Virus record (IMG/VR): IMGVR_UViG_3300005578_000001
Coordinates: 1 to 64,000 of that record
Length of the DNA: 64,000 nucleotides
Reading direction: 5' to 3' (one strand)
DNA from: a virus
Shown: in pieces, positions 24,949 through 25,633 of the stretch
Layout: each line of letters starts with the position of its first letter
Position numbering within the stretch: the stretch's first letter is position 1
Notes under the pieces: generated by a model
What the model was told of the DNA's origin: nothing
Database searches by the model: none
The model's input: only the letters and a program-made list of their open reading frames with translations
Position numbers and translations under genes: made by a program

Positions 24949-24964
24949 TAGCTTCTACTGGTCG

Positions 24965-25053
24965 CGGAGGACATGGGAATCGAACCCCACCGCGCGAACG
25001 GACCCTTTGGATGTAAATTCCATTTACGTGCGCCAGCACAAGGGATGTCCTCC
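24965..25053 (-). tRNA. Non-canonical 9/3 allo-tRNA-like RNA, putative anticodon UUA
   Basis: 9-bp acceptor GGAGGACAT/ATGTCCTCC plus G discriminator; 3-bp T stem GGG-TTCGATT-CCC; D arm TGTGC-TGGC-GCACG; TGGA-ATTTACA-TCCA; variable arm CCG-TTCGCG-CGG. Confidence 0.75.
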
Positions 25054-25054
25054 G

Positions 25055-25633
25055 CTATTTCTTTACCGCCCTCGCGCGCTTAACAGGCTTCACAGGCTTC
25101 ACAGTCTTCGTCGGTTTAGCGGCGGCTAGCTGCTTACGCTTCGAACGAAGGGATTTAATTTCTTCCAACACCCCCTCGGCTGCTGCTTTAGCATGGTCAA
25201 GAAACGATGCGGTCGGAAGAATGACTGCCGGATATGGACCACGTCCGGTCATAGTTGCGAGCATCTCACGAGCAGCCCCGTACAACACAGACGGCGCATT
25301 CGCGTAAACGAGTATGAACTCATTTGTATCCGGCTCCCCCGCATGAAAATGAAAGTACCCGACCAGTGACAGGCGAAAGCTATATGGATATCGATCCTTA
25401 CGTCCTGCCGAGGCGATTGTAAGAACGTAACGAAGCCGCGAGGGGTCTTCCGTATGCCGACCGACCTCGCCGTTGACGGTGAAATCGGTCGGCTCAATAT
25501 TCCATGCTTTCTCCATCCTGTAGTGATAGCCCGAAGAAGAACCAAAAACCGTTTTCTTCTCGAACGCCTCGTTCAGCTTGAAAAAGAACTCGGCGACGTG
25601 ATAGCCCTCAAGATGTAACGGTGACGGCTCCAT
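25055..25633 (-). CDS. SecB-like chaperone of a TAC system
   Basis: SPLHLEGY, PYSFRLSLVGYF, NAPSVLYGAAREMLATMTGRGPYPAVILPT. Confidence 0.85.
   Translation of the reverse strand: MEPSPLHLEGYHVAEFFFKLNEAFEKKTVFGSSSGYHYRMEKAWNIEPTDFTVNGEVGRHTEDPSRLRYVLTIASAGRKDRYPYSFRLSLVGYFHFHAGEPDTNEFILVYANAPSVLYGAAREMLATMTGRGPYPAVILPTASFLDHAKAAAEGVLEEIKSLRSKRKQLAAAKPTKTVKPVKPVKRARAVKK

Follow-up and report, generated by a model that had tools for sequence, protein, structure and literature searches.

What is a short stretch that can be drawn as a tRNA with a stop-reading anticodon doing at the end of a toxin-antitoxin-chaperone (TAC) operon in a viral genome, and to which genetic unit does it belong? An earlier sequence-only reading of the window (the whole stretch analyzed here, 64,000 nt, positions 1 to 64,000 of IMG/VR record IMGVR_UViG_3300005578_000001) had proposed a (9/3) allo-tRNA-like RNA and suggested that it could be a fourth, RNA component of the TAC module. 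The (9/3) allo-tRNA class and its loose tie to toxin-antitoxin systems and transposable elements were described previously (Mukai et al. 2017, Nucleic Acids Res 45:2776; PMC5389517). The features of the locus are listed in Table 1.

Table 1. Features of the allo-tRNA-like locus and the element that encloses it (positions in the window)
Feature	Position	Strand	Basis or remark
IS1-family cargo transposon, 6263 bp; encloses RNA gene, transposase operon and TAC operon	21619..27881		terminal inverted repeats start GGTAGTGTCC
9-bp target duplication CAGTTTCGG	21610-21618 and 27882-27890
IS1-family transposase, 279 aa; first gene of the convergent operon	23644..24483	plus	Pfam DDE_Tnp_IS1, NCBIfam transpos_IS1
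orf105, conserved small protein	24480..24797	plus	> 900 homologues, all hypothetical
RHH59, ribbon-helix-helix protein (RelB/NikA-like)	24769..24948	plus	family matches
Allo-tRNA-like gene, 89 nt; G1 25053 to discriminator G 24965	24965..25053	minus	9/3 geometry, tRNA-Sec match, model R1, covariation
Acceptor stem, 9 bp; 5' strand GGAGGACAU, 3' strand AUGUCCUCC	25053-25045 and 24974-24966	minus
D arm; 5-bp stem UGUGC/GCACG, 4-nt loop UGGC with G18 and G19	25027..25040	minus
Anticodon arm; 4-bp stem UGGA/UCCA, 7-nt loop AUUUACA	25008..25022	minus
Variable arm; 4-bp stem CCGU/GCGG, 4-nt loop	24990..25001	minus
T arm; 3-bp stem GGG/CCC, loop UUCGAUU	24975..24987	minus
3' trailer CGACCA; discriminator without CCA directly after	24959..24964	minus
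TAC cargo: Gp49/HigB-like toxin, HTH antitoxin, SecB-like chaperone; ends 1 nt before RNA gene	25055..26484	minus	Pfam, SecB homologues

A tRNA-shaped gene that tRNA scanners overlook

The stop codon of the SecB-like gene (TAG, 25057-25055) is followed in the sequence by a single C and then by G1 of the tRNA-like element at 25053. Its anticodon loop consists of A32, U33, U34-U35-A36, C37, and A38, with the anticodon UUA at 25016-25014, and the anticodon stem is flanked on both sides by unpaired A-A. Much of what had been read from the letters holds. The 9/3 geometry with a UUA anticodon, a discriminator G, and a variable arm is confirmed by the sequence and by covariation, and the sequence likewise bears out the non-canonical anticodon arm (A32, C37, short stem) and the misplaced CCA, with the discriminator G followed by CGACCA.

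The single-sequence fold is unremarkable (MFE -36.4 kcal/mol, z = -1.74). Standard scanners were expected to miss the gene, and they did: ARAGORN reported zero tRNAs, whether for the window or for the complete 81.8-kb record, and no family reached its gathering score in the Rfam search. The suggested search with a tRNA-Sec covariance model gave a match from end to end (24966-25053; 29.7 bits, E 3.9e-4 in a 301-nt search), below the model's gathering score of 47 bits. With R1, a covariance model built in this analysis, the gene scores 108.8 bits. It is not a canonical bacterial tRNA gene, as the 7/5 geometry, scanner recognition, and an encoded CCA are all absent.

Compensatory changes in relatives

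Soil metagenome contigs and Pyrinomonadaceae (Acidobacteriota) genomes yielded 19 further copies, giving 20 loci with the window. In L004, L005, and L007, which were found via the SecB-like protein, the tRNA-Sec model matches end to end at 30-40 bits; these scores and that of the window are all below 47, as expected for false-positive-type matches. None of the further copies came from viral contigs, which were searched with two DNA patterns and one protein alignment. There was also no match for a SecB alignment against genome contigs or for blastn against GenBank phages and PLSDB plasmids. Two copies, L016 and L008, look degraded, with an odd loop or an A3:C70 mismatch and changed discriminators, and the L016 transposase is frameshifted.

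In a plain MAFFT alignment of the eight closest copies, five pairs have changed on both sides and 99.5% of the cells are paired. Across 18 aligned copies, 18 of the 25 pairs have changed on both sides, spread over all five helices, and 97.3% of the cells are paired, compared with 39-58% in a slid-partner control on the same copies. The observed values were reached in 0 of 500 shuffles, and RNAalifold gives the same five helices.

In the acceptor stem, five of nine pairs have changed on both sides among the 18 relatives, with G1:C72 and G2:C71 invariant, A3:U70 present in 17/18, and pair 4 always purine:pyrimidine. All five pairs of the D stem covary in the wider family; this stem has 4-6 bp in relatives, and its loop is UGGY in nearly all copies. 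Three of four anticodon-stem pairs covary. In the variable arm, which is longer in most of the distant relatives, three of the four modelled pairs have changed on both sides, pairs 1 and 2 even among the eight closest copies. All three T-stem pairs are present, two of them changed on both sides. Position 66, 5' of the T stem, is complementary to A80 in none of the copies, which excludes an 8/4 geometry with a 4-bp T stem. With 33 G:U cells and just 2 A:C cells, the structure belongs to the tRNA-sense strand. RNAalifold also predicts an alternative CCC:GGG helix in the core, which is invariant, so that covariation neither supports nor rejects it.

The case for the fold goes beyond chance because the relatives show compensatory changes in every helix. 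What these comparisons show is a gene of 89 nt whose RNA is tRNA-shaped, belongs to the (9/3) allo-tRNA type, and bears the ochre anticodon UUA; judging from the pattern of substitutions, the gene is selectively maintained.

The gene is part of a transposon backbone

In the window, the RNA gene lies inside the inverted repeats and target duplication of an IS1-family transposon, and in L009 and the L042 element (2.2 kb) it is likewise enclosed by the inverted repeats. The convergent transposase-orf105-RHH operon adjoins the RNA gene in 18 of the 20 loci, and transposase identity across the linked loci is 50-92%. The TGA-TAG stops of RHH59 end 17 nt from the discriminator at 24965, and TGATAG is kept in most copies. 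No Pfam, NCBIfam, or PHROG match was obtained for orf105; its AF2 model (pLDDT 86) predicts a layout of a helix, four strands, and a helix, which had no match in the PDB by Foldseek and only 'hypothetical' clusters in the protein atlas. Among 151 family genomes, there are 12 orf105 loci, with the RNA present in eight and absent from the four most diverged. In one other soil metagenome (run X3), two contigs agree with the window over 24808-25064 and diverge beyond it. This comparison is of DNA contigs, and the lack of cover in runs X2-X4 over the left passenger genes and the TAC operon is given no weight in it. Backbone and passengers meet ~10 nt 5' of G1.

On the other side of this junction, the genes change. 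Across loci, the upstream genes are the TAC operon, one of four unrelated gene sets, or a rearranged layout. The TAC operon is found upstream of the RNA gene in the window, L004, and L005, in L003, which is truncated, and probably in L007, where the contig begins within the SecB-like gene. A single nucleotide separates the SecB-like stop from the RNA gene in the window, L004, and L005, and probably in L007 too. L008-L011, L016, and L024-L029 have other genes in place of this cargo. A terminator-like hairpin is located directly upstream of the RNA gene in L010, and L042 has the RNA gene at the head of an operon. A more distant TAC homologue, L006, which is outside such a transposon, has a plain terminator hairpin and no tRNA-like element.

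The sequence-only reading placed the RNA at the 3' end of the TAC transcription unit, and this is correct for the window, where a promoter-like site is located at 26459-26432 and there is no good terminator before the RNA gene. The suggested look downstream of homologous higBA-secB operons turned up the same fold in the four TAC-linked relatives, for L007 probably, and a hairpin alone in L006. As a test, setting a conserved fold against a simple terminal hairpin in such operons proved too restrictive, since the conserved fold goes with the transposon and not with TAC. The idea of a fourth TAC component is not supported, as the constant partner is the transposase operon in the 18 linked loci, most of the 20 loci have other upstream genes, and L006 is without the element. 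The antitoxin stop TAA and the chaperone ATG of the window are directly adjacent and share a frame. A HigA-TAA-ATG-SecB read-through fusion was considered and rejected, given a 4-nt spacer and a different frame in L004 and L005.

These comparisons of gene order show that the RNA gene belongs to the constant backbone of an IS1-family lineage of cargo transposons from Pyrinomonadaceae-like Acidobacteriota and that the TAC operon is one of at least five alternative passenger sets. One 6.26-kb copy of this transposon has inserted into a tailed phage.

Anticodon, serine marks, and decoding

The anticodon loop is NUUUACA in 17 of the 18 transposon-linked copies and CUCUACA in L025. The linked copies therefore carry UUA and one CUA, both stop-reading, and the two unlinked copies have the sense anticodons UCC and UAU. 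The loops and identity positions stay constant while the stems turn over. Serine-type marks are present in the form of G73 (16/18 copies), R4:Y69, and the variable arm, and the host tRNA-Ser genes start with GGAGAGG and have G73. By this pattern of conservation, the RNA is kept under selection for a complete tRNA shape together with serine-type marks.

The 9+3 = 12-bp branch and the G18G19/T-loop elbow, which are needed for EF-Tu and the ribosome, are retained. CCA directly 3' of the discriminator was seen in 0 of 18 copies with inspected 3' flanks, and the host tRNA-Ser and tRNA-Sec genes encode it. C37 is conserved in the family of the window gene and is, to our knowledge, almost unheard of in decoding tRNAs. 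Because of C37, the 4-bp anticodon stem, and the lack of an encoded CCA, decoding by this RNA is probably weak.

In-frame UAA and UAG codons are absent from the transposase, orf105, and RHH genes, and the search of the transposon genes gave no read-through product that is conserved. The orf105 stop codon is TAG or TAA in 16/18 copies, yet it is likewise so in four loci without the RNA, and the read-through tails of 1-67 aa are unconserved. A private codon target for the anticodon in the transposon genes was rejected, as no conserved candidate was seen. The aligned transposase leaders have no motif complementary to the anticodon loop, so that pairing between leader and loop was rejected as well.

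The carrier phage uses the standard code, under which 82% of its genome falls within ORFs of at least 80 aa; if TAA is treated as a sense codon, this coverage rises by only ~2 percentage points. Of the 119 phage ORFs, 43 stop at TAA, an ordinary stop here, so strong suppression would be harmful. No conserved in-frame TAA was seen in essential phage genes.

Comparison with known systems

Several properties of allo-tRNAs in Escherichia coli bear on this gene. The 9/3 allo-tRNAs, with the UAA-reading group included, are serylated and translate (PMC5389517). The allo-tRNA(UAU) group associated with transposons and toxin-antitoxin genes gave no suppression when converted to CUA, two of six such variants were lethal to cells, and induced missense allo-tRNAs arrested growth (PMC5389517). 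'Five-stem junction' allo-tRNAs were inactive in translation (PMC5389517). The 9/3 chassis have A37, anticodon stems of 5-6 bp, and a 2-nt linker, and several of them translated in E. coli; the motifs of the window gene's family are absent from that chassis list (PMC7590224 supplement 1). In one 9/3 allo-tRNA, a single extra core contact, C8:A45, leads to ribosome disassembly after translocation (PMC9561287).

The window gene shares with the (9/3) allo-tRNAs the 9-bp acceptor and 3-bp T stem, the long D stem with a tetraloop, the helical variable arm, the discriminator G, the resemblance to tRNA-Sec models by which it was picked up, an acidobacterial and soil origin, and toxin-antitoxin genes nearby. 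However, it lacks the long anticodon stem and ordinary loop of the validated 9/3 members. Its anticodon stem has just 4 Watson-Crick pairs and is A-A flanked, C37 replaces a purine, and its linker, CCC(U), has 3-4 nt and is matched by a GGG that never varies. Likenesses to the allo-tRNA(UAU) group are the mobile-element and toxin-antitoxin contexts, a possible five-stem junction, and the deviation from the standard allo-tRNA-Ser cloverleaf; one relative, L023, likewise carries UAU. In contrast to that group, the window gene has the anticodon UUA (CUA in one relative) and well-paired rather than destabilized stems, and a fixed place in an IS1-family backbone, as in the window family, is not described for the group in PMC5389517.

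Bacterial tRNA-Sec (RF01852), the best Rfam match, has the same long acceptor stem, long D stem with a 4-nt loop, and variable arm, but the acceptor branch of the window gene is 12 bp, not 13, and its anticodon is UUA instead of UCA. The host has separate tRNA-Sec genes of its own, with an encoded CCA. The suppressor tRNAs of stop-codon-recoded phages also place a stop-reading anticodon on a phage genome, whereas the window gene came in a bacterial transposon, is unrecognized by canonical scanners, and sits in a carrier genome without recoding. As in other IS1-family elements with passengers, there are DDE_Tnp_IS1, GGT-starting inverted repeats, a 9-bp target duplication, and passengers inside the repeats. 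The window element differs in its single-ORF transposase followed by orf105 and the RHH gene and in the structured RNA gene in its backbone, for which no published description was found in a limited literature search.

Possible function of the RNA

The best explanation, to which we give a probability of roughly 55%, is that this is an allo-tRNA-type backbone gene of an IS1-family transposon whose product is processed, serylated, and acts at stop codons for the transposon. The decoding part of this explanation, taken separately, falls a little short of an even chance. The RNA gene would be transcribed as the tail of the upstream passenger operon, since it has no conserved promoter of its own; here, transcription would start from the higB-type promoter near 26432-26459. 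RNase P would cut one nucleotide after the SecB-like stop codon, 3' nucleases would trim the other end, and a CCA-adding enzyme would supply CCA. SerRS may then charge the RNA, in which G1-G2-A3-R4, G73, and the variable arm are retained as in host tRNA-Ser. Through its anticodon, the RNA would act at UAA and UAG codons, probably weakly given C37, the 4-bp anticodon stem with its A-A mismatches, and the invariant CCC/GGG core clamp. Whatever the RNA does would serve the transposon, not the TAC module.

Possible, although rather unlikely, is a non-decoding role as tRNA-shaped transcript punctuation or an insulator. Cuts by RNase P and 3' nucleases would separate the passenger transcripts from antisense run-on into the RHH-orf105-transposase operon, so that passengers could be swapped without upsetting transposase control, and the released antisense RNA may tune that operon. 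As such a role would have it, the RNA gene always separates the passengers from the 3' end of the transposase operon that converges on it, and the gaps are just ~10-25 nt long and free of a terminator. No promoter is conserved for the RNA gene because the backbone ends ~10 nt 5' of G1, which also fits, as does a CCA that is unencoded though host tRNA genes encode it. Moreover, C37, the short anticodon stem, and the CCC/GGG clamp resemble the translation-inactive 'five-stem junction' allo-tRNAs (PMC5389517). However, a plain terminator would suffice for this purpose, and the L042 element heads an operon rather than closing one. Punctuation also leaves unexplained the constancy of the anticodon loop, of the discriminator G, and of the tRNA-Ser-like first four acceptor pairs, as well as the stop-only anticodons of the transposon-linked copies.

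Quite improbable is a harmful tRNA mimic, in which a Ser-charged RNA with a rigid core would stall or split ribosomes at stop codons or cause damaging read-through, and so might act as an addiction or abortive-infection effector beside the toxin-antitoxin and defence-type passengers. The analogy is with the growth arrest and killing by some allo-tRNAs in E. coli (PMC5389517) and with the C8:A45 precedent (PMC9561287), as the invariant CCC/GGG of the window family might form pairs in that part of the molecule; the RNA would be expressed once the passenger operon is de-repressed. Against this, many copies are in ordinary chromosomes without an obvious neutralizing partner.

We give very little credence to a dedicated fourth component of the HigB-HigA-SecB module, whether as a toxin decoy, mRNA element, or suppressor. 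The tight spacing behind the SecB-like stop in four loci (one of them L007, probably), probable co-transcription, and the in-frame TAA/ATG junction in the window would suit it, but the same RNA follows unrelated genes in L008-L011, L016, and L024-L029, heads the operon in L042, and is missing beside the TAC homologue L006, and the TAA-ATG frame is not kept in L004 and L005. Just as implausible is a chance cloverleaf, a decaying tRNA pseudogene, or a suppressor for phage recoding: the modest z score, the sub-threshold Rfam score, and the degraded look of L016 and L008 would be in keeping with the first two, but all five helices covary across 18 copies, the standard code fits the phage with TAA as an ordinary stop, and the RNA gene came with the transposon.

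An extension of the preferred reading of an RNA that acts at stop codons for its transposon is that IS1-family cargo transposons require the RNA rather than carry it passively, as a private effector of tRNA shape that ties them to the decoding machinery of the host. It might then act as a mobile suppressor of nonsense codons or as a mimic that stalls ribosomes, coming on together with the passenger operon, and it could also control the transposase operon. We consider this extension unlikely.

Implications

[quoted passage not shown] For annotators, it is a warning that tRNA scanners overlook stop-reading tRNA-like genes on mobile elements and phages. Allo-tRNAs also serve as chassis for genetic-code expansion. 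A vague association of allo-tRNAs is thus turned into testable questions: whether the transposon needs the RNA, whether the RNA reads stop codons, and whether it harms the ribosome.

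The tRNA-like gene and its relatives

The minus-strand sequence given for 24959-25057 in the sequence-only reading was matched exactly when the window was re-read (see table). ARAGORN found no tRNA gene in either the window or the full 81.8-kb record, and no Rfam family reached its gathering score. The element is thus missed by standard tRNA scanners, as had been anticipated. A search with the Rfam tRNA-Sec covariance model, which had also been proposed, gave an end-to-end match under permissive thresholds (24966-25053, 29.7 bits, E 3.9e-4 in a 301-nt search), below the gathering score of 47. 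The single-sequence fold was unremarkable (z = -1.74) and, therefore, the question of chance required relatives.

Features of the RNA gene and of the neighboring transposase operon in the window
Feature	Position	Strand or orientation	Detail
SecB-like ORF stop	25057-25055	minus	TAG, then one C, then the cloverleaf
Acceptor stem	25053-25045 and 24974-24966	minus	GGAGGACAU pairing with AUGUCCUCC
D arm		minus	stem UGUGC/GCACG, loop UGGC
Anticodon arm	25016-25014 (anticodon)	minus	stem UGGA/UCCA, loop AUUUACA, anticodon UUA
Variable arm		minus	CCGU/GCGG
T arm		minus	GGG-UUCGAUU-CCC
Discriminator	24965	minus	G, then trailer CGACCA
IS1-family transposase	23644-24483	convergent on RNA gene	tblastn across loci
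orf105	24480-24797	convergent on RNA gene	105-aa protein; tblastn across loci
RHH59	24769-24948	convergent on RNA gene	59-aa ribbon-helix-helix protein; tblastn across loci

In the protein collection, 27 homologues of the SecB-like protein were found, and their alignment, used as a query, led to five metagenome loci. Three of these (L004, L005, and L007) contain the tRNA-Sec-like element too, scoring 30-40 bits, and a fourth (L003) has only its 5' half. [quoted passage not shown] With scores of 47-80 bits, more distant copies were picked up by R1, a covariance model of the family built on eight full copies, in 10 of 151 Pyrinomonadaceae genomes and in two additional genomes from a 151-genome sample of the phylum, both genome samples being partial.

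When the eight closest copies are aligned with MAFFT alone, 5 pairs show changes on both sides, and pairing holds in 99.5% of cells. Across 18 copies, in an alignment fitted to the model and so favoring the structure, 18 of 25 pairs change on both sides, all five helices have compensatory changes, and pairing holds in 97.3% of cells; the unfitted eight-copy alignment agrees. Sliding the partners as a control left 39-58% of cells paired, and 0 of 500 shuffles reached the observed values. RNAalifold predicts the same helices. G:U cells number 33 versus 2 A:C cells, indicating that the tRNA-sense strand is the structured one. The cloverleaf is therefore confirmed, far beyond chance.

Transposon backbone and passenger genes

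When the proteins neighboring the RNA gene in the window were compared with all loci by tblastn, three genes directly beside it and convergent on it were found in 18 of the 20 loci, with transposase identity to the window copy ranging from 92% down to about 50%. L042 is arranged differently: in this 2.2-kb element (386-2590), which has the same inverted repeats at its ends, the RNA gene points away from the transposase and is the first gene of an operon, followed by a 251-aa gene and an orf105 homologue. Among the 12 orf105 loci in the 151 family genomes, 8 have the RNA gene, and the four without it are those with the most diverged orf105.

The window transposon (6263 bp, 21619-27881) encloses the RNA gene, the transposase operon, and the toxin-antitoxin-chaperone (TAC) operon. 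Its 22-nt terminal inverted repeats begin GGTAGTG (21618-21639 and 27861-27882, 95% complementary), and it is flanked by a 9-bp target duplication, CAGTTTCGG (21610-27890 with the duplications included). The inverted repeats, the edge of the RNA gene, and the transposase operon are also found on contigs from other soil and rhizosphere metagenomes. In one run, two contigs match 24808-25064 and diverge beyond, which places the backbone-passenger junction approximately 10 nt 5' of G1.

On the strand of the RNA gene, the upstream genes are HigB(Gp49)-HTH-SecB in the window, L004, L005, and probably L007; an unrelated three-gene set in L009; a 311-aa protein in L008; a 151-aa protein in L011; and a 230-260-aa protein in L010, L024, L027, and others. 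In L010, a terminator-like hairpin follows the gene for this last protein, upstream of the RNA gene. With a constant transposase operon and varying upstream genes, the RNA gene belongs to the backbone of an IS1-family cargo transposon, and the TAC operon is one interchangeable passenger. The sequence-only reading had suggested that the RNA could be a component of the TAC module. This was not supported, since the upstream genes are unrelated in other loci and L006, the one TAC homologue encountered outside a transposon of this kind, has an ordinary terminator hairpin at its end. A look for the same fold after homologous TAC operons had been suggested; it occurs in L004, L005, and L007 (5' half in L003), but not in L006.

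At 739-824 of L003, the SecB-like gene is followed by TAG, C, the 5' half of the RNA gene, and then the transposon inverted repeat (812-824); this locus is a transposase-less deletion derivative with its break inside the RNA gene. The L009 element (908-4133) is a 3.2-kb transposon copy splitting a thioesterase gene. Its passengers encode proteins of 160 aa, 190 aa (HTH), and 103 aa, and in the last passenger gene, too, a Lys-rich tail is followed by TAG-C immediately before the RNA gene. The left-hand passenger of the window transposon (22128-23416) encodes a 280-aa proteasome-like (Ntn) protein, with a 148-aa protein ahead of it (Pfam). A third inverted-repeat-like copy with 2 mismatches (22090-22104) suggests an older or nested left end. 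A 164-aa phage ORF (27864-28358, minus strand) has its stop codon within the right inverted repeat and, thus, the insertion replaced the original C-terminal end of this gene.

In the transposase promoter region (23570-23630), the motif GTAGTAC, which reads GTAATAC in distant relatives, occurs twice, with one copy upstream of the -35 hexamer and the other overlapping the -10 hexamer. Both copies are conserved across 8 loci and probably serve as the operator at which RHH59 represses. The last 29 nt of orf105 (24769-24797) are also the first of RHH59, which is read in the +1 frame; the shared stretch spans an A-rich run, GAAAAGAAAAAAGG. In L008, one ORF of 168 aa covers both, and a frameshift might produce a fusion protein.

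Fixed positions, anticodons, and codon targets

The stems turn over freely across the family while several positions stay fixed. G1:C72 and G2:C71 are invariant, A3:U70 is present in 17 of 18 copies, pair 4 is always purine:pyrimidine, and the discriminator is G in 16 of 18. The D loop (UGGY), the T loop (UUCGAUU type), CCC after the acceptor stem, and GGG before the variable arm are fixed, and the 9+3 split of the acceptor branch and a 7-nt anticodon loop with U33 are kept. The fixed acceptor positions look like serine identity marks because host tRNA-Ser genes (two Pyrinomonadaceae bins) start with GGAGAGG and have G73, a reading that leans on established tRNA-Ser identity rules. Transposon-linked copies have the anticodon UUA, with CUA in one linked copy (L025), and both read stop codons; in L016, a degraded copy, the loop reads CGUUACA. 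Of the two copies that lack the transposon module, L022 has UCC and L023 has UAU. This context-dependent pattern suggests that the anticodon matters.

The phage that carries the transposon is tailed, encodes terminase, portal, scaffold, and tail proteins, and has direct terminal repeats. Its code is standard, with ORFs of at least 80 aa covering 82% and TAA as an ordinary stop in 43 of 119 of these, which rules out phage stop-codon recoding as the purpose of the RNA. With TAG read as sense, the longest ORF in the 81.8-kb record grows from 1338 to 1661 aa, probably by chance. The antitoxin TAA abuts the chaperone ATG in frame in the window; a read-through fusion is not conserved, as L004 and L005 have a 4-nt spacer and another frame. 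No conserved in-frame stop codon was found in the transposase as a private target. The transposase ends mostly in TGA, RHH in TGA-TAG, and orf105 in TAG or TAA, likewise in loci without the RNA gene. The orf105 read-through tails show no conservation across copies, and the transposase leader has no motif complementary to the anticodon loop.

Possible roles of the RNA

The comparisons show a conserved, structured, tRNA-sense gene embedded in the transposon backbone, without a conserved promoter, a terminator, or an encoded CCA. We tentatively favor a decoding-type role (probability about 0.45). The RNA would be transcribed as the tail of the upstream passenger operon, starting in the window from a strong promoter-like site (26459-26432) with no good terminator before the RNA gene. 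The 5' end would be made by RNase P at G1, a single nucleotide beyond the SecB-like stop codon, and the other end by trimming with 3' nucleases. CCA would be added post-transcriptionally, SerRS would charge the RNA, and it would act at UAA and UAG codons with low efficiency.

Conserved C37 and an anticodon stem of only four Watson-Crick pairs, with A-A flanking both sides, count against efficient decoding. CCA directly follows the discriminator in 0 of 18 copies examined with 3' flank, unlike in host tRNA-Ser and tRNA-Sec genes, which do encode it. CCC and GGG could pair as a fifth helix (RNAalifold), similar to the 'five-stem junction' forms that were inactive in Mukai et al. (PMC5389517). 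In an engineered 9/3 allo-tRNA, one extra core contact was enough to cause ribosome disassembly after translocation (PMC9561287). A non-decoding role as a processing or insulating signal between convergent transcription units is less likely than decoding and is the strongest of the alternatives. A harmful ribosome-stalling mimic is improbable. Membership in the TAC module, with unrelated genes upstream in other loci, and a chance fold or pseudogene, with compensatory changes in every helix, are both highly improbable.

Mukai et al. (2017, PMC5389517) described 8/4 and 9/3 allo-tRNAs from Acidobacteria and other bacteria, including a 9/3 group matching the UAA codon, and found allo-tRNA genes often near toxin-antitoxin systems. 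A 2020 review repeats these observations and adds no function (PMC7609411). The RNA gene has the geometry that defines 9/3 allo-tRNAs in the 2017 study but lacks the anticodon-arm features of validated 9/3 members. The 9/3 chassis sequences of PMC7590224 have A37, 5-6-bp anticodon stems, and 2-nt linkers, and motifs of the RNA gene family are absent from that chassis list. Judged by sequence, the gene is best filed with the known 9/3 allo-tRNAs of Mukai et al. In a limited search, the literature on allo-tRNAs and IS1 offered nothing as specific as its constant position in an IS1-family backbone with exchangeable passengers.
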